From NCBI GenBank assembly GCA_036172245.1, contig JAYWIR010000025.1:2852001-2916000 (forward strand): DNA of 64,000 bases, given 5' to 3'. The first letter of the stretch is position 1, and the number at the start of each line of letters is the position of its first letter. The translations under genes and the position numbers were made by a program. Origin of the DNA: Raillietiella orientalis (Eukaryota). The notes below the pieces were generated by a model that did no database searches, was not told the origin of the DNA, and worked only from the letters and a program-made list of their open reading frames with translations. Shown here one piece after another: positions 663-64,000 of this stretch.

Positions 663-1788
663 ATGGTCACCCTGGCGAAGGAGAGCGGGTGGATGGTCTG
701 CAGCCCCTCCAACCCCAGCGCATGGCTGGATGAACCTGTTGGCACGTGGGCGGAAGTGAATCAGAGGAGCCACGAGACGTGTAATCGCCTGCGACGCGGC
801 CGCTGCACTCTGCGCGAGATACTGGAGTATCCAGCCAGGGGCACGTGGGCAGAGACAACCTGCCTAGCTACGGCGCTGCCCTTCCTACGGAGGGCCCTCA
901 TTAGCAGCCGGACGCCGAGGTGGCAAGTCTCTTGCCGTATCGCAGGCAGAGAGAAGTTGATGAGAGATTGGACCATGGGACAGCTGGCGGACGCCACGAC
1001 CCAGAGCGCCTTTCCGCGTGGACTGAAGAAATGAGGCGAGCTGCTAGGCATCACGACGGATGACCTGAAGTGGCCCCCAGTAATAACCGGAAGAAGGATG
1101 CTTCCCCTAAAATGGCCGGAGTCGGCGCTCATGCTGTTGCACTGGGGACTCCCCTGCAACGCGCGCCGCCACCACTGGACACGGGGAAGTGTGAATCCAA
1201 ACTGTGCCAGGTGTGGGGAGCGGGAATCCCTCCCGCACCTTTTAGTTGACTGTGTTTCCCTCCGGCCCCTTTGGGAACGTTTTGAACGACCCTCAGGATC
1301 CCGGTTGGCAACCCTCCCAGAGACGTTTTCCGGCTCCTCTTCGTGCGGGACGCCCTGCAGCCAGCCGCTGTCGTGGCAGCGCTCAGCTGCATCCGCGGTA
1401 TTGTGGCGGCCTAGAGTGGATCCGACGAAGAAGAAGCAAACGACAGGGACGTCATCGAGTATGCGGCTCGTTTCCTGCGAATAGCAACCCGATGGTCCCA
1501 CCTGGGAAACATGCGGAAGGACCACGTTAGTATCCTGCAAAGGATGGACCCTCCACCAAGAGGAATGTGATCCCTTCCTGACCCTCCAAATAACTATGGT
1601 GTTTTCTTTTTTCAGTTTTCTTTTATTTTTATTTTTGTTTTTCCCCATCCCCCTCCGCTGACGTGGAGAGTCAAGTCGGTCTGCGCACCGACGACCCGGC
1701 AGGTTCCTTGTTTTATTGGCCGCAGCGGGGCTTTGTACTGCAATTGTTATCTGTTTACAATAAACGCCCCGGAGTGACCGGGTGATAA
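663..1788 (+). mobile_element. 3' portion of a decayed L1/Tx1-like non-LTR retrotransposon (ORF2 C-terminus with zf-RVT CCHC motif, 3' UTR, poly(A) signal and terminal hairpin)
   Basis: ORFs 663-1034 and 1098-1484 are in the same frame, broken by one TGA. The frame contains LHWGLPCNARRHHW..NPNCARCGERESLPHLLVDC..LRPLW, a C-x2-C..H..C zinc finger typical of LINE ORF2 ends. A T-rich tract and AATAAA at 1759-1764 follow. Confidence 0.8.
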
Positions 1789-5330: not shown

Positions 5331-5336
5331 TCCAGC

Positions 5337-6260
5337 AGGTTCACCCGCCGAGATTCTAACCCTCTCCTTCCCTTCTCTCTCGGCACAGGAGAGGGAGGTT
5401 CGCGCAGCACCGAGCGCGTCGGCCGCGCCCCGTCCAGCCATCTCTCGGACCCGCTGCATCCAGTGCCACGGTGCCATCAACTTGCTCGGGGTCACAAGCC
5501 ACCCAGCGCCTCGAGCAGCCGTTTGCGGCACTCCTGGCCATGCGACGCACTGCTTCACCGCTTGAGGGAGCCGGGAAGGGATCGCGGCCCCCTGCAAAAG
5601 CCTCACCCCTGCGGCGCGCCTCCGCCTCGACCCGCATCTGCCGCTGCCCGAGGGGAGGAGACGGTCGTCTGGCCTGCCCCTTCGGCAGCGCCCGTGACGC
5701 GCTCGCAAGTGCCCCGCCAAGGAAGCGCAAAGACCTCGCGTTCCACCCGTCTCGACGGAGGACGACTTCCGGGTGGTCGTTGGAGCCCGTGCCGCCGGGA
5801 ACGGCCACGCTCTCTAGGCTCCTGAGACACCCCCTTTCGACGGGAGCAGGTGATCCGACGGCCAGGCATGGACGAAACGGCTGGAACATCGGCGCGCACC
5901 TCCCGCAGCGACTGGTCCCGACCGACGTGGCTGAGGATTCCCGGAGAGGATGCTGTCACACCTTCGTGCGGACAGGGCAAGAAGAAGATGGTGGCATCCC
6001 GTGGAATCCCCTCCCCCTCCCCTTCCGTTCGCTCGACGGACAGAGCCGGTTCGCATGCCTTCCCTTTCCTTCCTTCTTTCCTTTCTTCCTTCCCCGACGC
6101 TCGCTCGAGCGCATTGCCCGGCTTGGGTTGCTGGGAAAGGAAGGGGGAGCGCGCGGTTCGCGCAGCTGGCCGCCCCGTTCGTTCCCTTCTTCCCTCGGGA
6201 GGAGGAGGTCGGGCGGCCAGGATCTCCGAATTGCCGTGCACCGCCGTCTTCTCGATGCCG
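5337..6260 (+). repeat. Left arm of a 924-bp inverted duplication (content resembles a decayed LINE ORF1/gag zinc-knuckle region)
   Basis: Reverse complement of 8792-9715, with only about 5 substitutions seen by eye. Identical ORF translations appear on opposite strands in the ORF track. Degenerate knuckle GCCHTFVRTGQEEDGG. Confidence 0.95.
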
Positions 6261-8414
6261 GATTTTTGGAACGACGGTCTCCTCCCCCGTGTGCCGCATC
6301 CCAGCAGGCTTCTTTTTCTGGTCGCCTTCCGCGTGGAAGGCGTGTCCTCCGCTCCCACTGAAGGATCCCTCTTTCCTTCTTGTACCCTGCGATCCCCGTG
6401 AGCGCTCCCGAGGTTTGCGGATTTCCTTTTGCTTCTTAAGCGGAAAAAGGAAGACTCCGGCTCTGCAGATGAGAGATCTCTCATGGGGTACCTTCAGGAC
6501 TCTTCGGGAGGCGAAGCTATCAAGCTCTTTCAGAAAACGCCCTTTCTTATTTGTCTTGGGCAAGACGCAGGGACTCGCGTCTCCTGGATAGGGAGGGCCG
6601 CGCGCGCGGAAGCTGGAGGGAAAGCGCCCTAGGGCAGAAGCGGTAAGGAAGAGTCTGCGGGACCTGTCGGCTTCCCCAGGTCTCCCTCTCCCCCTTCCTC
6701 CCATCCTTCAACTTTCAACGAAATGACCGGGGGCGTTGGCAGGACGTGGCGGGACAGGAACCGGCAGCCCTGCCCCAGCTTGGGAACCCGCCGGGTCCAA
6801 GGGAACCGTTTCCTCTTACTCCGTCCCAGATGAAAAGATCGAGGCAAGAGGTCGCGGTGCGCGCGCCCCACCCGGGGTCCGCGTTTCTTCCTCGCCACGA
6901 GGAGGTCCAAGACCTCTGGGGAAACTCTTCTCCTCCCGGTTCCTCGGCAACCGCTTCTACGGTGCTTTGGCAGCCCTTTTTCGAAGCTGGAGAGCGGCGT
7001 TTCTTGACCCTGCGCCCGTGCAGTTGCAAAGTTCTCCCTAGAAGCTCCTGGAATTTCCCTTTCCCCCAAATGTCTGCGAGCCCGCGTCTGTGTTGCCGTG
7101 AAAATTTCGCCACCGAGCGGAATGGGAATGGGCGTGCGTAGGCGGAGGCGCTGCCTCGGGTGCACGAAAAAAAAAGGCGAAACCTCGGAGGAATTTCGGG
7201 AGGAGGAGGTCGGGTGGATTGCGCAGCCGCAGTGCCGCTGAGAACGAGGCCAACGGGAGGAGCTCGCGCCAGTGGAGGAGAGTGGTCGTTTCTGTTGCAC
7301 TTCCCGTTTCTCAGACTCCTTCGCTGGCGAAGGAAGTCGCCACCTTCTGCTTCGAGCGGGCCGTTTTGGGGGTCAAGCCTGCTCCAGGCTTGACTGGCCC
7401 TCCGCTGGCGGCGGCTTTAGACAGTTCCTGCTTTCTCGTTCCGACGTGTGGGCATCCTCCTGAGGTTTCGGCGGAGCTGCCGACGTCCCTCGCTCCGAAC
7501 GGCTTCTCACAGTCCGCCACGAAGGATCTGACGGACTGGAGACACGTCAGGAGTGCAGACGAAGGGCGCTGGAGCCCGAGTCCTCGCCCCCTCGAATCCC
7601 GCTCACCGGGATATCCTCAGGCCCCCTTTTGCTGACGCACGGAACGGGGAATTCACATGGAACGATCCCATAAAAAGGGACTCCGGCTTGTTCGACGCCA
7701 TCCCTGATGCATCTTCCCAAGTCACAGGGTTGTCTCCCGCTGCTCCAAACGCCGAGCAAATTCATCCCGGTCCGTGACCTGGACGCAACGAAGGAAGTCG
7801 ACGCGCTGCTAGGATAGAGACAACTCTCCTTCCCTTTGGTTACAGAAGAGAGGTGTCTTCTGCGATCCTTTCTCGAAGATCTACTTCCGCCCTTTGGCAA
7901 CGAGCGTAAGAAAAACTGCCCGAGGTGAAGCAGCATCAATGATGACACTGGACAGACCTGACAGAGCAAACAAACAACCGGCGGCTCACGAATCGCTCCT
8001 ATTTACCTATGGTTTTCTTGCGGATCGGAGAATGGGTCATGCAGCAAATGCTGGGGGTGATTCGACGACCGAGCTGGACCGAAGGATGACCGGACCGCGG
8101 CAACCAACTACTGCATGCGTCAGCTCGAGTCTCTAAGACGGACTCCACTGGTGGACTCGCCAGTCCACGATACGTCACCGGGAGCGAAAAACGATTCGTC
8201 GTCTGGTTCTGAGCGGAAGGAGTCTGAACCGTGAGCACAGATCAAAGACAGATGGATGAAAACAGTGAAAAATAGTCATCTGAAGGGTTTGGAACATCGT
8301 GGGAAGATCGACCAAGAAGTGAAGAGTAGCGATGCGAGCCGAGAAGAACGATTTAGCCGAAGGAAATGATTATCATTGTCCCATGAGTCATTAGGCTGGA
8401 AACACATGCAAAAA

Positions 8415-8791: not shown

Positions 8792-9715
8792 CGGCATCGA
8801 GAAGGCGGCGGTGCACGGCAATTCGGAGATCCTGGCCGCCCGACCTCCTCCTCCCGAGGGAAGAAGGGAACGAACGGGGCGGCCAGCTGCGCGAACCGCG
8901 CGCTCCCCCTTCCTTTCCCAGCAACCCAAGCCGGGCAATGCGCTCGAGCGAGCGTCGGGGAAGGAAGAAAGGAAAGAAGGAAGGAAAGGGAAGGCATGCG
9001 AACCGGCTCTGTCCGTCGAGCGAACGGAAGGGGAGGGGGAGGGGATTCCACGGGATGCCACCATCTTCTTCTTGCCCTGTCCGCACGAAGGTGTGACAGC
9101 ATCCTCTCCGGGAATCCTCAGCCACGTCGGTCGGGACCAGTCGCTGCGGGAGGTGCGCGCCGATGTTCCAGCCGTTTCGTCCATGCCTGGCCGTCGGATC
9201 ACCTGCTCCCGTCGAAAGGGGGTGTCTCAGGAGCCTAGAGAGCGTGGCCGTTCCCGGCGGCACGGGCTCCAACGACCACCCGGAAGTCGTCCTCCGTCGA
9301 GACGGGTGGAACGCGAGGTCTTTGCGCTTCCTTGGCGGGGCACTTGCGAGCGCGTCACGGGCGCTGCCGAAGGGGCAGGCCAGACGACCGTCTCCTCCCC
9401 TCGGGCAGCGGCAGATGCGGGTCGAGGCGGAGGCGCGCCGCAGGGGTGAGGCTTTTGCAGGGGGCCGCGATCCCTTCCCGGCTCCCTCAAGCGGTGAAGC
9501 AGTGCGTCGCATGGCCAGGAGTGCCGCAAACGGCTGCTCGAGGCGCTGGGTGGCTTGTGACCCCGAGCAAGTTGATGGCACCGTGGCACTGGATGCAGCG
9601 GGTCCGAGAGATGGCTGGACGGGACGCGGCCGACGCGCTCGGTGCTGCGCGAACCTCCCTCTCCCGTGCCGAGAGAGAAGGGAAGGAGAGGGTTAGAATC
9701 CCGGCGGGTAAACCT
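8792..9715 (-). repeat. Right arm of the 924-bp inverted duplication
   Basis: Reverse complement of 5337-6260. Confidence 0.95.
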
Positions 9716-10049
9716 TCTCTACAGGGACGTTACCTGGACAAGGAACGCTCTCCAGTATCGCGACACCCGCTGGAGACCTGACCGTCGCCTCCAAAGACGA
9801 GCTGGACAGGTGCTGGAAGCGATGGAGACTATGGAACATCCCTCCCTTGCGTTGTTTCGACCTCTAACCTTTTTCCCCTTGACTTGCACTTATCCTGCCG
9901 CCGACTAGAAGAACTCCGTGGTCGGGAGAAGGTGATCAGCGAGGAAAGCAGGTCGGTCCTACCGTAGTGCGACCTCCCCTTCGGACAGTGTGAGTCGAGT
10001 GAATCTTCATGCATCCACTTTTCTGAGGGTCCAAAATTTCACCTGGGAG

Positions 10050-28725: not shown

Positions 28726-31700
28726 CGCTTCCTCGTTCGTAAGAGATCTCTCCCACCGCTACCATCCTCGAAGAGAAACTTCGAGGAGGTTTCTAAAATT
28801 CTGCCTTCCGCGGGTGCTGCAATGCGGCGGCTGACCGAATGGCGTCGATTGCCGCTATCTTTTTCTACAATCCGACGGCCAAAGTAATGTCCTAGTGATA
28901 ATACGCCATTTTGCTTGTCTCCCGTTTCTATGGAAGCGGAACTGAAAAGCCCGAAGGCTTGTGGGCATGCTGGGTGCAGGAACGCATCCGTTGTATATAC
29001 GGTACCTTCTCGACTTGGTACACTTCTTTCACATTGTCCGGGTCTTCCATCGCTTCTGGATGCGTCTCATCCCGCGACATTCCACACCCACCAAATCGGG
29101 GAAGAAATCTCCACGCACCTCTCCTTTTTTCTTGGAACCAACTCGCCGTGAATCGGTCCTCGCAGCGGGTGCCGCAGGTCGAGATGGTTCGTAGCACTCA
29201 CCATAACAACGTCGTAGCTCTACGAGTCGCGCAGATGTCCGTCTGAGCCCTTGCATCGTAGGTTCGCGAGGACAGCTCCGGGATTGCCCCCACGCTCTCC
29301 TAACTTGCTCGACGGGAAGTCACCGGAAGCCTCTGTGTTATTACACATGCTGGAGCTCGTTGGTCACCCGACGGGGAAGGGGGGAGGATCAACCATCTGC
29401 GTGGAACGCGATAGAAGGTGTCCCTCCTCTCCCAAGGGGGAGGAGGACAAGCAGTTCCACAATCAGAGGGGAACCCTGAAGGGCTCCCTGAGGAGGTTTC
29501 CTCAGAGATTTCCTGGGAGGAAATCCCGGAAATTCTGGTCAGCCGACGGTAGGCGTCCGGATTCCACCGGTGCCGTCCCACCCGAAGCCCGCAGGCCAAC
29601 CAGCTCCGTCCCATGAGGGGGGTGAGGAAGGAGCTCCTACCACTTGCTCATTGCCATGAACAAGAACCTCGGCTTCCATGGAAACTCACGCCGGGCCCCA
29701 GGCGTCTTGAAAGCGGGAGCCCAAGAGTTCCAAGAGTGTCACTTACGACTCCTACTGTTATTAAGGGAGGATGAGGGGGAAGGGGGACACACTGACATCG
29801 CAAACAAGCCCAACAGGTGCACTCACTTTTTTTTTTCATCCACTGTTGTCCAAATGCTTGATGGATCGCCTCTGGTAGAAATATCTCGCTTCACTTGACT
29901 ACGGAGATCGTCAAAAGAAGACCTGCATGCTCCCTCCTTACTGCCTGGTTGTTCGTCCCTTCACCTTGAATTAGCTGACTGCGGAAGCGACCTCCTTCGG
30001 AAAGGTGCTGCAAACTGCTGCTGCCCCGCTGCCGACTTCCTCAGCTCGAAGAGCTCGCTCGAGCTCAAGCACTCGTCCCCTGCCACCGCCTTGGGGACGC
30101 TCAGGTTCGGGTCCACGGCAGCTCGCTCCAGAAACTGAACGGCCATCCCGCAGTCAAGGAGCTCGAAGGATTCAGAATTTTTCATGTTTCCCGGTTGCCA
30201 ATCCTAACTCCCTGCGAGTCGGGTCCCCTCGGCTGATGCCGATACTTTCGGTTTCCATTGCCGCCCTTCCATAGGAACAAGATTGGCCGGGATTCTACTC
30301 TGCAAGAACAGGATATTTGAATTTCGTTTCGACGAAATGTGATCTCCTCTGCTGCGGCTCCTTGGCAAGGGAGCACTCCCTTGCTCTGTCGTGATTCCCT
30401 GATTGCTTTGGACCAGGCACTTTGCCCACGTCTAAAAGCGCGCGCGCGGGTTCCCAATTCCGTCCAAGAGCACCAAGCTCAAGTCTGTCGCTCTCTTTCG
30501 CTTTTGTCCCCCTCCCGGCCCGTTCTTCCTGTGTTCTTCCTCCTGAGTCGGGATGGTCGTGGCTACGGTGTGTCTGTTCCATATTTCTCCCTTTCCTTTC
30601 TGAACAGAATGGCCGATATTTATGGACAATGAGCGGGTGACTACCAGTAGACGGATTTGTTTTCGATACATCTTAGAGGATGCTGTTCTCTGGGAGTTGA
30701 GCTTTTGTTCCTTGCCAGTCTTGGAATGGGATCTCTAGAGAAACTAGAAGCAGGTGGCTGTGCAAAAGGTCTTGCCCACTTTACTCCGGGCTCCTCATGC
30801 TGAAGACACCGGGTGGACGTTGCGTGCTGAGATTTTCCTGTCGCATACGCGTGTATCAGGCTGCACGCACTGCAGAGCTGTCCGCTTCTTTTCCTTCCAT
30901 ATCTTTAAAAGCAAACTCCAAGGAATTGACAGGCGACAGTAGGCAGCAATACCGGAAACCAGGAATGGAAGGCACTGAAGATGCTCATTACAAGGAACCC
31001 CCGAAGACAAGGGACGAGCCTGAAATCTCACAAGGGTAACTCGGAAAGTCTCCTGCTGATTTCTCTGGCACTCCATCGCAGACAAACCCTTATGTGCACG
31101 TATGGTTGCAGGAGTGGATTCGGGCAATTGAAAGCCAAAGGTTTGTTTTAAATAGGCGGGTAGGAGTAGCCAGTGATTCTTTTAGCATATAACTGCTAAA
31201 ATGACCAACGTCACTTTGCTTTCTTATCCTGATGAAATTCATCCGCTAAAGGCTTCGGCCAATTTTTTGCAATAAATGTCAAAAAACGCGCACTGACACG
31301 ATGTACGACCAGTACCTCACAAAGTATGAAGGTCTCTGTATGAACCGATTATGCTTTTCCTTGTTCTTTGTCCATTCAATGCGTTTAGCATTTGGCTATC
31401 ATTTCGAGCTCCAAAGCAACCATTTCCTCTCCCAAATAGGGAAACTTTATTTCACAAGGTTCGAGCTGACTGTGAAAATTTGCGGGCGGCAATCTGTACC
31501 GTAGACTGCCGCCGGTCCCATGCAACGAAGCTTCGGTGCAGCCTGATGCTGTAGCTCGCTACATGGCGATGAGAGGTAGAGAGTGACAGCATCCACGTCG
31601 CCGCTGCGACCACTCAGTTTGAGTAGATCATCTTCATTTTGAAAGGAATGTGTCCTCCTTCCCCTCCTCCTCCTTCTCCTGCTTCTTTTATGAAATTTTT

Positions 31701-43500: not shown

Positions 43501-44437
43501 CATCTCTTTAGCATGAAACAGAAACCTCCGAGCGCAGACTTAGGAACCCATGCTTATGCAAAAAGGAATTTCATTTCCTTCTCATGCTGATTCTACCCAC
43601 TTTAGCCAGCAACAAACAATGCGTTAACTTTTTTCCCGTTATGCTTAGCATAATCAATTAAAAACAAGTTGGTATATCGGTTGTGTGCACCATTACGAAA
43701 CTGCTATTATACCTTTCGATCTATCCATATAAATTCATATTCAACCAGATGGAGCAAAGATGTGCCATTAAACGGCCTAATTTCGAGTACATCTCCCACA
43801 ACTGAGCTATTTGGCTGCAGCAATTACCGTTTCTCCTATTCTAGTTTCTATGATCTCTGTCTATTTCTTCATCGAACGGAGCCCTTCTCTTGCTTGCACA
43901 GCAGTCTGAACCACATAGACGTGTTTTGCATATTTTCTCTAATGGTTTGTGTTGTTTCTTCTGTATTGAAAAAATTTGGCTGCATTATTTCAAGTCATGT
44001 GAATCATATTTCTCGAAAAGCTTGTAACTAGCCAGGTAATTCACCTTTTTGTATCAGCAATCTCTCTGTATATCTTGTTGCAAGCCATCTAAAAACACCA
44101 GTGACTGCTCCCACTGTTGTTACCATTACCATCAAATTATTATAAATCATCAGTAGTAGTATTAGCATCTGCTAGGCACAGTTTAATATTTAATAAACAT
44201 GAATCTACATATGAAACCACTACTGAAATCTACATGGTTTCGTTTATTACTTCCGAAATTGATGAAAAATATTTCAAAGTCAACCAAATTTTAAACCACC
44301 AAGGAGTGGAATATCAAAAGTTCTCTTATCCAGTCTTCCATACTTTTGGCACATCAAGAACTCTTCTTGGTAATAGAAAGCACTTTTTCCCGTAACATGA
44401 GATACTTTGGATTGAAGTCCTCTAGCAACAAGATGGA

Positions 44438-45742
44438 TTACTTGGGATTCATGGTCTCCTTTATCTTCTTTAGGGAGGATGCTACAGCACTTTCTGGGAC
44501 TGATGACTCCAATGCCTTATGTTTACATAACTCCAATGAAAGCAAATATGCACAGACTTTCCTATATTTGTGAACTCCCGAGATCTGAAAATGGAAGAAT
44601 AAAAATCAAGTCTCCCATAATGCTCCTTCTCACCTTGATGAAGTACACTGTCTTATCTTCTTCATCTGAAGACAAAGCAGTTGCAGAATCGTGGTGACAG
44701 CGAGACTGTGAGACAGTTGGTGTCTCAATTCCAGATATGGTAGCTTGAGGATCTAATACTGAGGACTGGCTGTTGAGATCAGAGAATTGAGATTCCTCTT
44801 GGCTAACTGCTGACAGAACCTTGCCTTCTTCTGTTCTTTTATCCCTACTTGGACAGGCACACACTCTCAGGTTCAGTGTAGAGTGGCCCAATTCATTGCC
44901 TCTGAGAACAATTTACAATATGTGAATGATTGTCTCATACTTACTCAAAATCTTCTAATCTAAAAACTACGGCAACTGCCTGGCGCCCAGGCCCACCAAC
45001 GCAGCTGTGTCTGCACATGAAACGAAATAATAGGGTGGCAAGTGATGAACCTGGATTGCAGAAGGCCAAAGGAGCACGCACAGAATTGTGCTCGTTTTCA
45101 ACAAGATAAGTAGCCTGGGAGGAGATGATCCGAATAAAATGCTCCCTAAGATGCTCTGGGAAATCTAGATGCACAAAAATAGTGAGTGTGGCAACCACAG
45201 CACATGAAAACTCACTAAGGTTGGTGAATCGATCCATTACATGATGTTTGCAACGTTTCAAGGGAACGTGGACCAAAGAAGCATCAACAAAATATGCTGT
45301 AGCTCTCACAAAAAGCCAATGAGATATGGCTTTGGGCAATACTTCAAAACTAATTGGAACTGTGGAATTAATTTCTACAAACAACTTATTCAATAAGGGG
45401 GAAAACTGAAACAAAATCAGTGAAATAACGCAGCTGATGACTAACAGCCCAAGTAGTGGTGCGGGAAGTTAATTCCTCTGGAAAAACTACATGGAATCCT
45501 AACTCTCCTGGTAAATTATCAAACTGGATTCCTGAATGTGGGTTCCCAGCAGTCAAATCACAAACCCTGTCATCACATCCCAGAATGGCCTCGTCAAATT
45601 CTAAAGTATCTCTAGTAGTTCCATGGGACATGAGAAAGTTTATTAGGATATCCACTTACACAAAATTTTTCAAATCCTGCACGAGAGTGCTATCACATGT
45701 TAGGGAATACTCCATCGGGTTATGATCATCGAGATCCATCAT
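44438..45742 (-). CDS. p53: p53-family transcription factor (DNA-binding domain plus oligomerization domain), 357 aa, 6 exons
   Basis: Exons 45742-45660, 45611-45446, 45405-45216, 45164-44945, 44901-44634 and 44584-44438 are all GT-AG and phase-consistent (introns 48, 40, 51, 43, 49 nt). Motifs: FSPLLNKLFV, RCKHH, FMCRHSCVGGPGR, RVCACPSRDKRTEE, and tetramerization-like YFIKISGVHKYRKV..LEL. An in-frame TGA directly precedes the ATG. Confidence 0.93.
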
Positions 45743-47191
45743 TCATTGTTAAATAGAAGCTATGTCGGTGCCTGTTGGATTCTGGGAAACCACCAGAAGC
45801 TTGCTGGCTGACGAAAAGCACCTTGCAGGCTCAATGAAAACCAATTTAATTTAGTTCGCCACGTCTTAAAGAAACTACAAAAGAAACATCGGGAAATGAT
45901 GCCTGACTACAGTACTTTCGCTTCTTACACGTTTAGACAAATATAAGCTTACATTTTCTCTAGCCATCCTTTCTCACAGCCACTTGTTTCCATTCAAACT
46001 TACACTGTTTATCCTCAAGACACACACACACACTTCAACCGTTCACTGCTCTCCGCTCTGCGCCAATCGAATCGGGCAGACGGCCCATGTTGGGCGGAGT
46101 AACACGTGTTATCCCCAATACCCTCAGCTTGAGCCAGCGGGATTTTCGAGATGTACCTGTTCCCTATTTTGAACAGGTGGACCCTCAAATTCGAGGAAGC
46201 GTGAAGGAACCAACCTGATGCGTTATTTCCCTCCCTCTCCCCCCTCCCCCTCCCCAAACCAAGGGACTGAGCAGGTGTCAGGGTCCCCCTCTGCGGTTAA
46301 CAAGCGCTCACCGAATAGAATTAACTTTAAAGCATATCTGGAAAAACGAGAAAACTACGTGTGGGCAAAAAGTTTCTTGAAAACCGAGTTTTCGGTTTTC
46401 AAGAAACTCGTTAGACTATTTTTCTTTCTTTAAAATAGGGAATGTTAAACTGAAATGGCCAAATTCTAAATGGAACTACTTCCCTGATTAATGAAATGGT
46501 TAATTCGTAGAATTCTGTAGACCCCACTTTTCGAGGAACGTTTCTTTTTTTCGCACCGAAAAGTTCCTACTCTTACAAGAACTCAGGAGAAAAAACAAAC
46601 AAACAATACAGCGAATAAACACACAGTGTATCTCCGGCATCACATTAACAAAGTAAATACACGGAACCAGCACCATGACTCGAAAAGGACACAGCAGGCC
46701 AACTGAGGTGTCCCCAGTTTCGGCAAGAAAACCTCAGACCGAGATCGGCTGAGGTGGCTGTTGAGTCCACGAGACGCTTTTGTTATGTTACTGCCGCGGA
46801 CAACATTACAAGACACCGTTCCATGTTTATTGGAAGCCGGTACTTTGTGACAAGATTTATCAGGTGCCCAAACAAGGGCAAAAGTAAAAGATAACTGCGA
46901 TATGGTGGCACCGCATTTTCAAGCTTCGACATGCTTTGCTTTGTTTTTTGCTTTTTTTCGATCAAATTACTTGTTACATTGCCACATCATAAGCAACACT
47001 AAGTATGACATGGCATATTATTGTTATTGCATTTAAGATACACGAATTAGCTGTTATTGCTACCCATGGATATTTATTCATTACAAACACGGTGGAAAAT
47101 GTGTTTGTTTGTATCAGGTTTCGAGTGAGCTTTGCATTGATTTGAGACCACAACCAAAGTTAAGGACACTCATGGATGAGAGAAGCTTGCA

Positions 47192-50499: not shown

Positions 50500-51214
50500 T
50501 CGTCGAATAGCAACTCTCAATTAAGCTGTAGAATCACATCTAGGTCTAGAAAATGCTGCAAACGGTAGCATTTTCCAAGGGAGAAAACAGTACACGGCAA
50601 CATTCGTTTGCAATGTCGCCTCATCGAAAACAAACCCTTTAAAATGAGTTGTTCCTCTCCTAGGATCCTCTACAGCTCCTCCAACAAATACTGCACAAAT
50701 ACTTGATTTAAATGCACTCTACAAAACCGCTTGCCATCGAAAAGGCTTCCAGTGTAGATCGGGAACAGCGGTCTGTGCTCCACATATGTAAAAATGCCTT
50801 CAGAACACTCAAAATGCGACACGTTGTGTTCAGTGAACAAAAATAAGTACGATGCAGTTGTCAGCATTTTAAACTTTCCATAAACTTAGGTCATGCGTTT
50901 TCCCGTTTTTTCATACCGTTCTCACTTCGCAGTGGGTGGAATTTTTATATATCCTAGACGGAGGGAAAAATAAGTTTTCCCCAAGTCTGTTCTGTCAATT
51001 TCGAGTGATATCTTTGCATCCATGGGAACAGAAATCGAAAGCGTCTTCTGAAATTGAGAGAATTCATGAGCCCTGTCTTCATGGAGGATGACTAATCCAT
51101 TAGGATCAACATTTGGAAACAACCCACAAAATATAGGAAAATAGAGAGATTACCTGCTAAAGTAGGAAGGTTCTCGAAAGTATCAAAAATTGATGGCTGT
51201 GTTAAAATAGAGAG

Positions 51215-51261
<47 letters not shown>

Positions 51262-55450: not shown

Positions 55451-56020
55451 ATGCAAGGTGATTTCTCGACGAATTTCCAATCTTTAAGATTCCACTCGCA
55501 TGACTCGCAAAATTTCAAAACTTTTGCAACTCGGAAAGAAAACCACCGAAAGCAGAAAACTGCTTTATTCGGCACATGGAAGGCTTAGAATGTGTGTCCC
55601 TTAGCAATGCCCAAGACGTACGTGACCACGAAGAAGCTGCCGGAAACCGAAGTCACCGAACTGCGAAGGGTCATCGCGAACGTCACTTTACACGGCAACA
55701 AGAGCAGCTTCGGGGATTCAGGTCGGGCAGTCGCCTCTTCATCGTACGCCTCGATGACGCGTGTGTCTTGCAACAGGCTCTTATGATCCACTACTCCAAG
55801 GGGGAATCGATACTTGGATCTCCAAAGCTCGGTATTCACACGATGCCGAAACCGAGCTGGACATTAAGATGGACGCGAGCGATCGTTGTGCGGCCAAACG
55901 GATACGGGCGAATCGCTCCAAGTGAGACTCCCTTTTTCTCTGGTGCACGAGAAATCTCATGTTTACCTAGAAGCCAATCTTCTCATAACATTTTGCAGGG
56001 GCGTCTCTTTGAGGGCATGA
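55451..56020 (+). CDS. Spliced small ORF (~96 aa, unknown function) immediately upstream of and in frame with the sarcoglycan ORF
   Basis: Exons 55451-55457, 55605-55721, 55777-55921 and 55999-56020 are GT-AG and phase-consistent, giving MQAMPKTYVTTKKLPETEVTELRRVIANVTLHGNKSSFGDSGSYDPLLQGGIDTWISKARYSHDAETELDIKMDASDRCAAKRIRANRSKGVSLRA*. One donor (gtcggg) is weak. Confidence 0.5.
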
Positions 56021-56023
56021 CTC

Positions 56024-57234
56024 ATGATGATCCTTCTCTCAATTTGGGGAGGACTTTGGTTCAGGAGCATACTGGCTGATTTCGGTGATACCATGCTGCT
56101 GTTGGAAACAGAATCAGCATTTGTCTATGACTTGCACATGTTAGATCAAAACAACAGCGGTAGGATCAAAATGAATTTTACTTCTCATGAAAATTGTAGA
56201 TTCGCAACGACGCTTCCAGCCTCGGTTGGAACACCTTCCAGGATTACCCAGTTGGTTATCTTACAGTTCCAACGAAGAGAAAAACCTTGCAGTGCTATAT
56301 GGTGCCCCTCTGGAGCCTGGCAAAATCAAGGTAATGCATGATAGCACGCAAAAATGTAACACAAAAGTGCTGCAGATAGACGTAACCATTACTGATTTGG
56401 GTACTTTCACTTTCACAACCAAACGATTGATCCTTGAATGCATCCAGTCACCAAGTATGTTACTTTGAATTTGAATTTAGATTGATTTGGATTTAGGGAA
56501 GCCACTTAGACAAGTAGAGTTGATGTTGCTAAACTGGGATCTTAAAGATGTATTGCTCCAACAGAACATAGCTACCTTGCTGAATGTGTTCACATCCAAG
56601 TTGTGGCCTGAAAGTCAGAAAGATATTACCTTGACAGGAATCCAACTTCCAGCATTCAGAAATGATAAACAATTTATTGAGACTGGAAAAGACGGGTATG
56701 CTGGAATAGATCTGACTAATCAAATATAAGTATAATAATATTAGGATAGTGGTCAGAGTAGGTAGTGAAGCGCCTTTCTCAAGGCAGCTGCAATGGTTTC
56801 ACCAGGAAGCAATTCCTAAACAGTTGTGTATTCCACGCTATCAGAAAACCTCTGCAGAACGTTATTTTCGAGAAAGAGGACTTGCTCCTGAATGGTGCTC
56901 CCTCAAACTGATAGAATTAGCCCAACCAAAGTTATCCTCCCCAACAGCTTCTCTTTTTTCTTTTCCTTCACGAAAAGAGAAACCTCAACACACAATCTTC
57001 CACAATCTCGCCACAATACTGGTGCTACCCTGCGTTTTACTAATTATTTTCACATGTGGAGGGCTTATTGTGGTGTTGAAGGGGACCAAGCCAATAGCTC
57101 CTCCCCCTGTCGGTACTTGCGAATTCGCTTCCACTCGCCAGTATTATAATTCATCTGGAAGTGGGTCTCAACTACCACTGCTGCCAAGGTGCCATCGGGC
57201 TGCACCATTGCTTCTGGACACTCCCCCAACTTAA
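56024..57234 (+). CDS. SGCE: Alpha/epsilon-sarcoglycan family type I membrane protein, 344 aa, 5 exons
   Basis: Exons 56024-56159, 56200-56330, 56376-56454, 56497-56695 and 56745-57234 (introns 40, 45, 42, 49 nt). Signal peptide; PGLPSWLSY..VLYGAP; LLNVFTSKLWPES; GIVVRVGSEAPFS..L; C..YQKTSAERYFRERGLAPEWCSLKL; and TM segment LATILVLPCVLLIIFTCGGLIVVL. Invertebrates have a single alpha/epsilon ortholog. Confidence 0.85.
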
Positions 57235-59565
57235 TAGTTACAATGTTCCCCAAGTGTGGGCATGGATTTTTCCGAGAACCTGCCATGAAGCCCAAAATTA
57301 AGGCTTTTTCTGGCCGTGTCACCTTATTAGAGTTTCGGAACATTTCCTGGGCTTCTGCCATTTGCTCTTTCTGAATTACAAGAGAAAATAAAAAATACAG
57401 CCTCTGGTAACCTCTAACTTTCTCACCGTCAGTTGTAGGGAACGCTTTGTTACTGGGGGATCTTCCACAGTTTGTGAAATTGGTTTAGGTGCAGGAGAAG
57501 GTGGCGAATTCTCCCTATTGGTGGGCCTCATTAGTTCTGAACTAGCCACCTGAACAACTGAAGACTGGGAAAAAGTATCACGTGCTGCTGGCATTGGTGA
57601 TGGAGGCATTAATGGGGTGAGAGTAGCATATGTAGGAAGGGGAGTAGATGGAGTAGGTGGAGGAAGATAACATGGAGTAGCAGGTGCTGAGATACCAGGG
57701 CTGGAAAGTGGCAAACCAGCAGCATACTCTGGAGTAGCAGTATTGGTTTCTGATGCTTTCAGTGGATTCTCTCCCTCTGGCAATAGAAAATGGCAAGTGA
57801 ATATGCAACAATAGTGGTCTGAATTCTACCTGGTGCACGTTTCCTCTTTTTTGCTTGATTCCCTATGGGCTGCTCATTAATATCCAAAAGTTTAATGCCT
57901 CCTTCTTTATGCCCTGACAGAGATCGCAGCATGGAACGGGGCAATGTTTGTCCAGAACCACTCCGTGTCAACAAGCCACTCAATTTGCTTGGAATACCCT
58001 TTAGAGGAGCTAATAACTATTGTGAAGACCCTGCCAAGCAATTTAATCCTTACTGGTATCATTCATTTTACGAGGTAATCCCCTGGTACGCAAAGGTACA
58101 GCAGTAATCACATTTTTTTTCAAATGATTGGCTGCTTCTGCTGATTTACTGAGTAACTCAGCACGCAAAGCAGCAGCTTTAGGCTTGCGTTTCAGCTGAA
58201 AGTGTTTACAGGATTGATTGGCTGTTCCAGATATGTCAGACAAGATGTTCTTATTCAGAAAAGAACATTCCAGCGGAAGCAGGCCGGCAACTTCTCCGTG
58301 TCTCTTCACTAATCTTTCCAATGAGTCAGTATGCACAATGCCAGCTCAACACTCACAAACTTTCTTGATATCACTAAGGAGGTCCTGAAAAATCTTCCGG
58401 TTCTCTTCTGGTTCCTTAATCTCCAAATTTAACATGCCAGTGGATGGATAAGGCTTGAGAATTTCTGATAACATGGCAACCCATGACTCAGTATCTGCAG
58501 TGCCCACTTCAAGAATTTCCTCTAACTCGGATCGCCACTAATATCAAAATTAATAAGATCAACATTATGGATATACTATTCCAAAAAAAGAAAAAAATTC
58601 GCTTGAATTTGGGCAAAACTTATCAATTACAGATTTTGTAAGAAATAAGTTCATATTTAAAAAACACAGTTTAAAAAAAATCTGGCCAAAAAACATTTGC
58701 ATCAAATGAAAAAAATTAAATTTAAAACACACAGAAGAGTTTTTCATTTTTAAAAATCCAGTTAGGTGTTAACAAAGTCTTCTCCAGATATAAACGAATG
58801 AAGTTCGCCATTTATTTCTCCTTTTTATTTTTATAAAAAGAGGAATACTTGAATTCCACACACAGATTACAACCATCTTGGTGCATGCATTATCCTCGGC
58901 ACAAATATCCTGCAAAATGTGGTCCTTGCTTGAACGTTCATTGTACACTTATCATTAATACAGTTACAAATGAACTAAATAATTTTCCTTCGGCCACTTT
59001 CATTCAAATTTGAAAAACACAATACCTTTAGCGGCAAAACTTCGAAAGAACAGACTCAGGCTGCATTTTCACTTTAAGAGTCAAGGGCCAATAAAAAGAC
59101 AAAGGAGAAGAAGAAAAGGAAAAATGGCAATCCGATGGAAGATGAAATTTTGATTATTCCAAACGTCGCAGGGCAAATCTGTCCAGAGTAAAACACACAC
59201 ACACACACCCACACACATCGATGAAATGAACGAAACGCACATTTTATTCCTAAGCAACTGTGATGTTCTGCTCATGGCTGTCCACGAGAACTTTGCACTT
59301 ACACACAAACACTTGATTAAAAAATTCAGGAGATACTATACGAAGAATTTCTTACTTCTTCCAAACTGCGTTTCGGAATATGGAAAAAGGAAAGCAATAA
59401 TTTGAGCTTCACTTGGACTTGCAGCTCAATGAAACAGTCTCTAATGTTCCTCAACACATCAGATTTCAGCTGGGAACAGATGGATCCTCCAACCCAGGAA
59501 TCGTTTGAAGTCCCCAACTTGTTGTGCAGCCAAAGAGATGTATCACTATCCCTCACATTTGCCAT
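57065..59565 (-). CDS. NELFA: Negative elongation factor A, 493 aa, 6 exons
   Basis: Exons 59565-59356, 58537-58357, 58308-58054, 58009-57830, 57776-57427 and 57370-57065 (introns 818, 48, 44, 53, 56 nt). Hallmark motifs: MANVRDSDTSLWLHNKLG, VKLKLLLSFFHIP, LPLECSFLNK, KHFQLKRKPKAAALRAELL, GIKLLDINEQP and AQEMFRNSNKVTRPEKALILGFMAGSRKNPCP..FQMNYNTGEWKR. Confidence 0.97.
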
Positions 59566-60420
59566 ACTGACGATCCTTCATTCGGCCATACTAAAATCAA
59601 CGAGAAGTGGTCGCAGTGTTCCTACGCGTGGAGAGCGCTTTCGGGACTACCTTTTCTCCCGCATCTGTCCCGGCGAGCGGGGGCTTCCCGGGACGGGGAG
59701 AGACGTGGAGACGCCGTGGACGTTGTGATGGATGGCCTGTGAAGGAAGGTTCCTTTCGTACCGTTGCAGTGGTCCACTCGCAAGAAAAACTGCCTTTGAA
59801 TGCACGTCTTAAAAAAAGGGGGGGAGCGGAGGGGGGGGGGGAACACCTCCCGAATGGAAGAGAATACTTTGGAAGATAAATTCGCAATTCTTTTTAAAGA
59901 GGATGCGTGAAGACCGTCTTATTATTATTTTTTTTAGATGGCTTTTCGTACGCATGCCACGAATATAGACTTCGGTTCGATTCCACGCTGAATAAGGCCA
60001 GCTTGAAAGCACAATTGGAATTTCGGACGTAGTAATTAACCAGTGCTGTCTCAGTACTTGCGATGCTGCGTAGGAAGTGATGTGTTCCGTAGTACACCAG
60101 AACTGGTTTGCTGACTACTGATGAGCCTCCGGAATGATACATGAGGCAGTACTTAGGAGGCCTCCGTAAAGTGTGCCACATGCGACGCTCTTTTATGAAA
60201 CTTTTATGAAGCTTCCTTCGAATTTTAGCATTTTTGCAAAACGCGACAGACCACCGCTGATGACGATCCGACCGTTGCACTCCCACCGTTGAATCAGAGA
60301 GCACTGACGAAACCTCGCTTCGAATCCCATTTTCCAAGGACATTCCAAAGGACTGAAACTATTAAAGCCATTGTTCACCATGGCCGTCCTGTTCCTGAAG
60401 ACGATCCTCCCCACATCATC

Positions 60421-60443
60421 AAAAAAAAAAAAAAAAAAAAAAA
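60421..60443. repeat. Poly(A) tract
   Basis: 23 consecutive A. Confidence 0.95.
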
Positions 60444-61039
60444 CCAGAAGGCGGTGATTTCCTCAGGATGAGGGATCGGGTCCAGAATCCCTTGTCCCTT
60501 CCACGTGATGTCTGTCTGATTCTCATCGCTGGGCAAGGGGCACGCTGCTTTTTCGAACGTTCCCGATTTTTGGTTCTCCAGAAAACAGTTTGCAATTCCA
60601 TAAGGCAGTTTCCCTATGGCGGAACACTTCACAAATCCCGAAATCTTAACGGAATACCTTGGTTATTTTATAGAGCGAGGTAGATATCCATAATCAATAA
60701 ATTTAAGCGAGTAAATATTGTAAGAGTTAAGCAAACAAAACAAACCTTCATTCTCAAATTCTAATTATGCATACAAAACACGTGGAAATAGGAAAATAGG
60801 CTGGCGTACATATATAGTAAAAATTGCGTTCTCAATAACTTGGATGTTTTTGGGTCTTTGCATTACAAATTCTTTTCATTTCAGGCACACAATAGTAGTA
60901 AAGCTGCTGACATGCAAAGTAAGGGGCGCTGAGTTTCAAACGTGTTTCGACTGGGCGCTGCATTTCAAGTGCTTTCATTTTCACTAGTTTTCAAGGAACA
61001 CTTATTGACCTTCCCCGGAACACTGGTGACTCGCGGAAC

Positions 61040-61400
61040 AGCGAAAATCCCCCCCCCCCCTCTTCCTTCGCTTCCGCCCGCGTCTGTCCTCAGCTGGGCG
61101 AGTACCGACCTCGACAGAGGGAGTTTCCGACGACCGCCGAGTAGCCCCAGCAGCCGACCCTGCCGGTTCCTTGCTCGGGACCCCCCTCATTCCCTACCTC
61201 GCAGCATCCGGAAGACGGAGGAGCACGTGGGAGTGGTCGCCACCACCTCCCTCGCGGTTTTCCTGCTGACCTCCCTTCCCGGGGCGGTTCGCGGGTAGAC
61301 GCGGCTCAACCCCACAAGGAGGCACGTCTTCCAGACTGCCGGGAGACCTCCGAGGGATGGGAGTACATCGGAACATGGTTTGGGAAACGCTGCCTTAAGG
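61040..61400 (-). mobile_element. Short GC-rich APE endonuclease remnant of a LINE
   Basis: A GC-rich island in AT-rich context. GVEPRLP...GDHSHVLLRL resembles the SRLD..SDHxxV end of APE domains. Confidence 0.35.
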
Positions 61401-63630
61401 AATGGGTCGTTTTTTGTCAAGAAAGAAGGGAAACCCAAAATCCCTCAAAAGTACGCGGGAATTTCGATATCAGAAAATCGACTGAGGTGCGTTATACATT
61501 ACGCTGATTTCGAAGTGATCAGTTGATACATGGATTCTGTTTCGTAAGCGTTTAAGGTAGATTACACAGCAGGAAGGACGGGTGTACTGCCGAAAAATCG
61601 GTACTCGGGGACGGAGGACAAAAATGGGAGTTGAAAAGTGGGGATCCGTCCTCCATCTCAACAGTCGTCAGGACAGAAGAGAAGCCTTCGACTTTTTCAG
61701 CTCCGATGATCATCAGCTTCAGATACAGCAGGGAGTGTTCATCAAACACTAAAGTTTGTAGAGAAGCTAGAAGAATGGACTGCTCGTTAATAAGATTGTC
61801 GGTGCGTACAATCACAAAAATTTGCTAAAAAAACTGATTATGGAAGTTTGCTCTTAATTTGCTTAGCAATCATTCAAATTGGTATGAACAACCATTGACC
61901 AGTTGATCATGGATGAATAACTCAAATCATTACCTGTTACTAAGCAATTTTATGTAGAAAAACAAGTACTGAAATTGTGGGAGCTGAAAAACGAATTTTT
62001 CGATTCTAGAATTTGCTATTCTTTAAAATAAAACTTGTATTTATTATGCACTGAAGATTGCGATTATAATAAGCTGGTTATGGAATTCATGGTTATATAA
62101 TTATCCTAAAGAGATTTCCAAGTGCCAATTTACGATTAGGTTCGAAAGAAATCCCACGTTTAAATGGGCCGAATTCAAATTGAACTCCCATTCATTCTCG
62201 AGTCTTTGGATATTAATGAAACGTCATTTTTCGAATTCTCTGTTTTGGCTGTTTTAATGACTCGTGTTTTTAGAAACCGCTTGAATCCATTTACTTTCCG
62301 ATCAGTTTCCGTTCACACTTCAGCTCATTTTTTCTTGAATCATAACTCACCAATGATTCATTAATGACCACATCAAGAAGTTATTTAGTCCCGAATGTGT
62401 CCTGCATCCGGTTTTATTAGCCAGACTCATCTGTATCTCCTTCAGTTTACAGTTTACTCCTCTCTGGCCAATTCAGCTCCGATTTTTAGATAAGAGGCCA
62501 GCCGTTTTTGGAAGGAATGCCATCGTCTTGACCAAAGCTACTTCTTTTTAGTGATGCATCCTTTGACAATTCATGCATTTCTTCTTTTCCTTTCATCAGG
62601 CATCCACATTTCGTCTTGAGGTTCGTCTTGATAGCCAAAGGTTTCCAAGTCATTAATTAGACATTCCCGAATAACATCATTAGAGGGAAGTGAAACGTGA
62701 GCGTGAGCGTGGTCAACAAGTAAGACAGAAGTCATCAGCAGACCACATAAAAATCAGACCTAGCATCGTGGTCTTCAGATCCAATCGTAGAGAAGATGGA
62801 TCGCATTTCCATTTCTTGTACTCATGTTTTTGTTCGATTCATATTTTGCTGATGGGGAGCGTATGTGCTATCTTTGCGCTCCTCCATAAACTAAGATGAT
62901 TATGGGCCAAAGGAAGGTAGGGACTGATGGCACGAAAAGAAAGATTTCGATCCATCTGTATTTTTCATTCAAGAGCTTCAGTTGGATAATATTCCATCAT
63001 GCCATCAAATCTCTGCAGGCCGGAGGCTTTTCTGGTATTCCATAATCTTGGAATGTCCTCGATTGCTCTTCATTTTCTCAGTATGGCTGTGATTTTTTGT
63101 ATCTTCCTGAAATTATATCTACTATATGTCTGATACTTGGTCCGATTTAAAAATTTGAAATCACCTTGGCTCCATTCACGAGTAGCTGAGGTCGTTCTCC
63201 GTAATGTGAAGAAGCTCACTCCTCTTTATGAATTCTCAAGAACCGACTTTCCGATGCATCGAAGTATTGTCTTGATCGATTCTATTTTAGCTGTTTAACA
63301 CTGATCCATCCCTCTTAAAAAATCTGAATATGGTTTCATCTCTTTTCAAAGATCTGCATTAGAAGTCGCCTTCCGGTATCATTAAAGAGAATGTTCCTTC
63401 TTCCAAGCAACTTAGCAAATATAAGAGTAATTCTGAAGGCAAAAACACATCGAAAAATCAGAAAATTCTCCATTTTTTTTTTAAAAAAAAAACGTAATTT
63501 GATTTTTTTAATGTTCAAAATGAGTGCAGGAGTGCCCAGTTTCCAACTTTTATTTTACATTGTTTTTGCATTCAAAGCGGAAAACAGGTGTAGTGATTCT
63601 TTTCTTCTTTATGAAAAGAAGTTCCCAGCT

Positions 63631-64000
63631 TTAAAACAATTGAAGAAACTCCTCAGTCTGTATCCTTAGTGTTTTCCACAAGCTCCGAATCGCTAATAGA
63701 GAGGCCTCATTAAAAATCGAAGTAGCACTGAAATTATAGAGTGCTTACAGTCTCAATCTCAATTGGTGTTTTCCGTGTACAAACCTAACCGCAGATCTCC
63801 GTATGGCTCTAGCAGCGGTTTTGTACCTCTGTTCATTTACCTGATTTTCTTCATACTGGAATTTGCAGTCAGAGAGTACATTCCACTGCACTCCGTTGGT
63901 CCAGTGCTACCGGGACTGCCTGTTGCGTTGTCTCTAGTAAAATTCAGATTGGCGCGTCTGCTCTGATTCCAGGAATTTGTTCCAACTGAAAAGTTCTTCA
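63631..64000 (-). CDS. Possible terminal exons of a gene that starts beyond the window end
   Basis: An open frame from 63998 to 63841 ends at a cag|gtaaat donor. The acceptor tttcag|t at 63727 continues in phase to TAA at 63631 (SATSIFNEASLLAIRSLWKTLRIQTEEFLQLF*). No recognised domain. Confidence 0.3.

Follow-up and report, generated by a model that had tools for sequence, protein, structure and literature searches.

A convergent coding-sequence overlap between a sarcoglycan gene and NELF-A, seen at the gene-model level in Raillietiella orientalis

A classic coding antisense overlap between last exons is that of the mammalian genes THRA and NR1D1 (Rev-erb-alpha), in which the overlapping exon of one partner is used in one splice isoform only. 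The preliminary description of the locus studied here took coding overlaps between conserved animal genes to be rare. This agrees with a survey of five metazoan genomes, whose account of overlap types describes CDS/CDS overlaps as strongly under-represented and opposite-strand overlaps as the kind that is retained (Solda et al. 2008, PMC2330155). As far as the survey characterizes them, gene overlaps are mostly species-specific and not conserved, and convergent overlaps, a minority of them CDS/CDS, are already documented in Metazoa (PMC2330155). Overprinting, or stop-loss extension of a reading frame into a neighboring gene, has been described for viruses and bacteria (PMC8227390, PMC2268670).

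Here, we analyzed a 64-kb window (the whole stretch of DNA under study, 64,000 nt of contig JAYWIR010000025.1; all positions refer to it) that contains a sarcoglycan gene of the alpha/epsilon type on the plus strand and NELF-A on the minus strand. Judged from the gene models, the two form a convergent CDS/CDS overlap that is robust to 57 local splice alternatives. It is a tail-to-tail pair in which both protein-coding genes are intact, set in a compact, arthropod-like genome with 40–56-nt introns, and no intergenic spacer is left between sarcoglycan and NELF-A.

As in THRA and NR1D1, the last exons of two conserved genes lie tail-to-tail with both strands coding; unlike in that pair, no alternative 3' exon was found within the window. 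The locus resembles the convergent pairs of the metazoan survey, as they are described there, in that the genes lie on opposite strands, both 3' ends are involved, and the arrangement is apparently species-specific. It differs from them in that both stop codons lie inside the partner CDS and 128 nt fall in a deeply conserved domain, the overlap being known here from gene models (PMC2330155). With the viral and bacterial examples of overprinting, to the extent that the two sources detail them, it shares a new segment laid over an older conserved frame, here that of NELF-A, and a new frame that is without homologs (PMC8227390, PMC2268670). In contrast to those examples, the overlap here is antisense rather than same-strand, it lies in an animal nuclear genome, and a C-terminal tail has been added to an existing protein instead of a new gene being formed. 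Because the survey already records convergent overlaps, CDS/CDS ones included, in Metazoa (PMC2330155), we see no new kind of mechanism here; the sarcoglycan/NELF-A overlap adds a case to a known, rare arrangement. A literature search on both names returned no report of an overlapping sarcoglycan/NELF-A pair.

The sarcoglycan gene (56024–57234, plus strand) has five exons and encodes a product of 344 residues. Exon 1 (56024–56159) carries the Met and a hydrophobic N-terminus and was placed by its frame and the donor G/GTAGGA. Exon 2 (56200–56330) encodes the N-terminal domain, as indicated by PF05510, and ends at the donor AAG/GTAATG at 56331. Exon 3 (56376–56454) is preceded by a 45-nt in-frame intron (56331–56375, ending in CTGCAG), the excision of which gives the spacing found in sarcoglycan homologs; with this intron still included, the spliced CDS has 1080 nt and is in frame. 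Exon 4 (56497–56695) rests on a weak PF20989 match, a homolog tblastn match at 56514–56696, and splice sites read from the sequence. Exon 5 (56745–57234) comprises the end of the ectodomain, the transmembrane (TM) helix, the tail, and the TAA at 57232–57234, and is supported by PF20989 and by homolog P0154, which aligns over 56749–57087. The four introns measure 40, 45, 42, and 49 nt and all have GT..YAG ends. Across both genes, nine of nine introns read have such ends, the five that were measured span 40–56 nt, and the verified donors are GTAAGA, GTGAGT, GTAAGG, GTAGAA, GTGAGA, GTAGGA, GTAATG, GTATGT, and GTATGC.

Pfam matches identify both ectodomains: PF05510 (sarcoglycan alpha/epsilon N-terminal) scores 32.5 bits in the ORF at 56175–56465 (cut-off 24, E 8.5e-8), and PF20989, the second sarcoglycan domain, scores 27.8 bits in the ORF at 56716–57231 (cut-off 24.1). 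The TM helix, ATILVLPCVLLIIFTCGGLIVVL, was assigned by peptide mapping to 57010–57078 on the plus strand; this 23-residue hydrophobic stretch matches the TM of 10 homologs in alignment, while the hydrophobic, signal-like character of the N-terminus was judged by eye alone. The same alignment with ten homologs shows that the conserved Cys pair and the single C-terminal TM are kept. Thus far the protein is like the invertebrate alpha/epsilon-sarcoglycans (P0122–P0151), with both ectodomains, two Cys around K-T-S..E-W-C, and one C-terminal TM. It departs from them in an ectodomain that is 23–27% identical to its homologs, compared with 29–58% among the other seven full-length proteins, making it the most divergent in the set, and in a 51-residue tail without the PPxY motif, compared with 98–249 residues in eight PPxY homologs. 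When the last-exon ORF was compared with longer proteins in a word-indexed search, 641 candidates emerged but none at E ≤ 0.001; the ESM Atlas gave no usable match, and a PDB sequence search with exon 5 gave no match at E ≤ 1.

The high divergence could reflect relaxed constraint, and it bears on an explanation that we regard as unlikely, namely, that the overlap is not a functioning one. Sequence between the genes would then have been lost in the assembly or in one haplotype, or the sarcoglycan copy would be truncated, decaying, or unexpressed. The unusual divergence, Pfam scores just 3–8 bits over their cut-offs, and the absence of the usual sarcoglycan tail fit such a history. Against it, the gene retains five exons in frame, four canonical introns, a signal-like N-terminus, both Cys residues, and the TM. 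Preservation of 344 codons over five exons without a stop or frameshift at 23–27% identity would be unlikely under neutrality and argues against neutral decay. The region from 57000 to 57300 likewise bears no junction mark, with no N and, by eye, no repeat.

NELF-A runs on the minus strand from a Met at 59565 to a stop at 57065. The part of the gene upstream of the last intron (57429–59565) was delineated by tblastn of four orthologs, by PF23553, and by splice sites read from the sequence. The last intron (57373–57428, minus strand; 56 nt, GTGAGA..TTCAG) was likewise read from its splice sites, and the last exon (57065–57372, minus strand; 101 codons plus stop) was fixed by an 11-ortholog alignment, a tblastn match over 57382–57101, and the acceptor TTCAG/AAAGAG. 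In addition to an intron of about 0.8 kb, which is bounded by a tblastn match that stops at 59356 and another that begins at 58537, there are four short introns, the last being the one measured. PF23553 (NELF-A N-terminal, HDAg-like) scores 103 bits over 59329–59577 and 56.7 bits over 58346–58537 (cut-off 27). The best matches in a database without this species are crustacean, chelicerate, and insect NELF-A proteins at 60–78% identity.

The NELF-A last exon is 66–77% identical to 11 arthropod orthologs and contains the conserved C-terminal domain (..VTRPEKALILGFMAGSR..ETHFQMNY..GEW..). Past KYRQGE follows a variable end, 13 residues long here and 0–15 in the orthologs. We mapped IKLGECPE to 57212–57235, VETHFQMNYNTGEWKR to 57125–57172, GEWKRIRKYRQ to 57107–57139, and the last residues, SPSTPQ, to 57068–57085. 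The 51 invariant columns of the last exon across the 11 orthologs bear out the earlier statement that the portion of NELF-A within the overlap comes from the conserved C-terminal domain of the protein. Because conservation runs to KYRQGE, this domain accounts for approximately 128 nt of the overlap (57107–57234) and the variable end for approximately 42 nt.

The preliminary description proposed that 170 nt, from 57065 to 57234, are coding on both strands. ORF reading and peptide mapping support this at the level of gene models, in that frames are open across the stretch on both strands. The open plus-strand sarcoglycan frame spans 56716 through the TAA at 57232–57234 (172 codons), and the open minus-strand NELF-A frame extends from 57484 to its stop, which appears as TTA at 57065–57067 on the plus strand. 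Peptide mapping also places this stop where it had been reported, inside the codons of the sarcoglycan TM helix, at the Leu/Ile codons of GGLIVVL. The sarcoglycan frame exits the TM helix exactly at the end of the NELF-A frame and then proceeds antisense through the NELF-A C-terminal domain to the first in-phase stop. The codon phase is such that sarcoglycan position 1 pairs with NELF-A position 1, and an antisense stop in this phase requires that a NELF-A codon end in TT, CT, or TC and that the next codon start with A. The sarcoglycan TAA arises in this way, because NELF-A Ile46 (ATT) precedes Lys47 (AAG), and it is the reverse complement of sequence within these two codons. Codons of the partner thus supply the stop of either gene, and each 3' UTR must begin within the partner CDS.

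We enumerated every GT[AG]..[CT]AG interval of 35–400 nt with a start at 57040–57234 and obtained 57 candidate introns. All 57 alternatives lead to a stop at or beyond 57149, inside the NELF-A CDS, and local splicing therefore cannot abolish the overlap; within that limit, the earlier assertion that some overlap is unavoidable is correct. The eight alternative introns of at most 130 nt have a GC content of 0.49–0.58. The five measured introns lie at 0.24–0.40, compared with an exon-like 0.53 for the tail. Only a splice to an exon outside the window could remove the overlap.

The cytoplasmic tail itself (57079–57231, plus strand; 51 residues) was delimited by mapping, homolog search, and alignment. 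A search of 1.84 billion representatives with the 172-residue last-exon ORF gave 35 matches, none of which aligns past query residue 114, where the TM starts; the tail is thus non-homologous, as the preliminary description had anticipated. Of the 35 homologs, 15 yielded a TM position with a crude finder, and all eight of those with at least 98 residues after the TM (98–249 residues) contain PPxY. The motif is also present, by eye, in homolog P0138, while P0154 and P0143 have short tails without it. Most of the invertebrate homologs found have a long PPxY tail, which is not part of the formal definition of the family. The only stop-transfer signal in the tail of the window's protein is Lys-Gly-Thr-Lys, which counts against the explanation preferred below. 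We considered whether APPPV in the tail (which starts KGTKPIAPPPVG; 57094–57108, plus strand) is a remnant of the PPPY of homologs and rejected this as coincidence, because the motif lies 6 residues after the TM, compared with tails of at least 98 residues in the PPxY homologs, and because its letters are the antisense of NELF-A Q-G-E-E.

The PPxY of the long-tailed homologs, missing from the tail read here, is one reason to weigh a different 3' end for the sarcoglycan gene. A weak donor at 57056–57073 (GTGGAG, GTGGTG, or GTGTTG) would splice over the whole of NELF-A to tail exons outside the window. In that event a sarcoglycan intron would enclose NELF-A, and the real overlap of coding sequence would shrink to approximately 6–14 nt, where TM codons face the NELF-A stop and the codons just before it, or to none with the donor at 57056. 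GT[AG] sites do occur at 57056, 57070, and 57073, the NELF-A intron of about 0.8 kb indicates that not every intron is tiny, and the window stops at 64000. However, these donors are unlike the nine verified ones, and an intron of more than 6.9 kb would be needed, whereas the other sarcoglycan introns measure 40–49 nt. No PPxY occurs in any plus-strand frame of 57000–64000. Nor did tblastn reveal a tail exon of the canonical kind at any other place in the window: among 79 HSPs at E ≤ 1 for queries comprising the 35 homologs and the exons of the window itself, the 32 that fall outside 56000–57300 all have E ≥ 0.099 and are chance-like. Short-tailed P0154 and P0143 also show that a sarcoglycan homolog may lack the motif. 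Taken together, we judge a long-range splice of this kind, with the nested arrangement that it entails, to be quite improbable.

The tail frame is without homologs, and the NELF-A frame that it overlaps is old and conserved, which is the polarity that marks overprinting. Searched against the antisense of NELF-A from other species, the tail gives weak tblastn matches (e.g., 53% identity over 34 residues, E 0.06), and its sequence is therefore largely a NELF-A shadow. We find it moderately probable that this is a real convergent pair in which the spacer was lost along with the ancestral sarcoglycan tail, so that the frame now continues across antisense NELF-A until its first stop and yields an overprinted tail largely dictated by NELF-A. 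On this account, a long ancestral cytoplasmic tail with PPxY would have been lost, and the 51-residue read-through tail would have taken its place. That an overprinted tail replaced the ancestral one is a reasonable inference, as distinct from a demonstrated history. Since NELF-A constraint largely sets its sequence, the tail is probably a low-information, disordered stub and not a designed domain.

Conservation of the arrangement was examined in 80 NELF-A loci from metagenome contigs, none of which has a sarcoglycan beside NELF-A at E ≤ 1e-3. Of these loci, 71 include the NELF-A C-terminal end, with downstream sequence reaching 500 nt or more in 50 and 1 kb or more in 35. When the search was relaxed to E ≤ 1, there were 15 weak sarcoglycan matches, several of them antisense of NELF-A itself. 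None of the 80 loci is from a close relative, the best segment identity being 94% over just 33 residues, and among loci of this kind the arrangement looks lineage-specific. Its absence from all 80 would also fit an overlap that is not a functioning one, as would the roughly one-in-three chance of an open antisense frame.

The latter figure comes from resampling synonymous codons over NELF-A residues 47–101 of the window (20,000 draws): the probability that the antisense frame is open is 0.32 with the codon usage of the two genes themselves and 0.43 with uniform usage. Such openness of the antisense frame is only mildly out of the ordinary and not statistically compelling. In 58 usable loci of the 80, the phase-matched frame is open over residues 47–88 in 20, corresponding to 14 of 44 distinct DNA sequences, and it is open in 2 of the 18 sequences that share the ETHFQMNY (arthropod) type of the window. 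The Ile46-Lys47 position, which supplies the sarcoglycan stop here, carries an antisense stop in 19 of the 58. The commonest closing stop is at Ile83-Lys84, found in 31 of the 58 loci and in 19 of the 24 distinct DNAs with [IV]83-K84.

In the window, codon 84 of the NELF-A last exon (57119–57121, minus strand) encodes Arg (CGC), while the residue is Lys in 11 of 11 aligned orthologs. With Lys at 84, the Ile83 codon ATT would put an in-phase TAA into the sarcoglycan frame, and the resampled probability of an open frame falls to 0.09. The change from Lys to Arg takes two base substitutions (AAR to CGC). One could imagine a functional, co-adapted overlap in which the Lys84-to-Arg change was fixed since it keeps the sarcoglycan frame open, a conserved elongation-factor domain having been altered for an overprinted tail, with the two genes coupled through an obligatory sense–antisense RNA duplex. 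Arg84 is suggestive as a single substitution but falls short of proving co-adaptation, and locus L045 has Arg84 too with the antisense stop still there. We give this scenario little credence and retain the loss of spacer and ancestral tail, followed by read-through, as the preferred explanation.

With the gene models as they stand, the 3' end of each mRNA must cross the CDS of the other gene, and the transcripts would thus pair in cis as natural antisense RNAs over 170 nt or more. A single AATAAA occurs on the plus strand past the sarcoglycan stop, at 57387 inside the NELF-A last intron, where it is the reverse complement of the pyrimidine tract of that intron. On the minus strand, the only AATAAA within 55800–57100 lies at 56673–56678, inside sarcoglycan exon 4, and is a candidate NELF-A poly(A) signal. 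If both candidate signals were used, the transcript overlap would be about 0.7 kb. Within 57373–57428, one short stretch may have two roles, as an intron signal for NELF-A and as a poly(A) signal on the opposite strand.

Low CpG observed/expected ratios are usual for germline-transcribed, methylated gene bodies. The ratio is 0.41 in the sarcoglycan body and 0.43 in the NELF-A body, compared with 0.90 and 0.99 in the 3-kb flanks. This depletion is consistent with both genes being transcribed, methylated gene bodies, and its extension over the sarcoglycan body as well as NELF-A speaks against a sarcoglycan copy that is decaying or unexpressed.

Several other features of the window were recorded. 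The p53 DNA-binding domain (PF00870) matches two adjacent ORFs at 44565–45468 on the minus strand (92.3 bits over 44944–45468 and 26.5 bits over 44565–44912), which therefore indicate a p53-family gene approximately 11 kb from the sarcoglycan gene; in the bin at 44001–46000, which holds this p53-like gene, the CpG ratio is also low, at 0.38. The first ~38 kb of the window are mostly 52–66% GC (47% in the 2-kb bin at 30001), and from ~38 kb on the GC content is 38–49%. The GC-rich part has long ORFs in all six frames, with no Pfam match among the 10 longest scanned, and includes an inverted repeat of 927 nt, the arms of which (5334–6260 and 8792–9718) are 99% complementary and separated by 2531 nt. 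The ORF at 1035–1481 (plus strand) has a Cys/His-rich end (..NPNCARCGERESLPHLLVDC..) that by eye is like the C-terminus of a non-LTR retrotransposon ORF2. (TG)n microsatellites, read as CVCVCV, occur at ~8300–8400, 51150–51250, and 59200–59260.

What stands out at this locus is the deep conservation of the overlapped domain together with a clear polarity of old versus new frame. For annotation, the pair is a warning that in very compact genomes two such gene models should not be clipped apart. If transcripts confirm the gene models, this would be a clean animal case of antisense dual coding in which a constrained NELF-A frame, conserved in arthropods and beyond, is separable from the new frame of the sarcoglycan tail. 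Such cases help to gauge how much overlap with a second frame a conserved protein can bear, and to date overprinting events.
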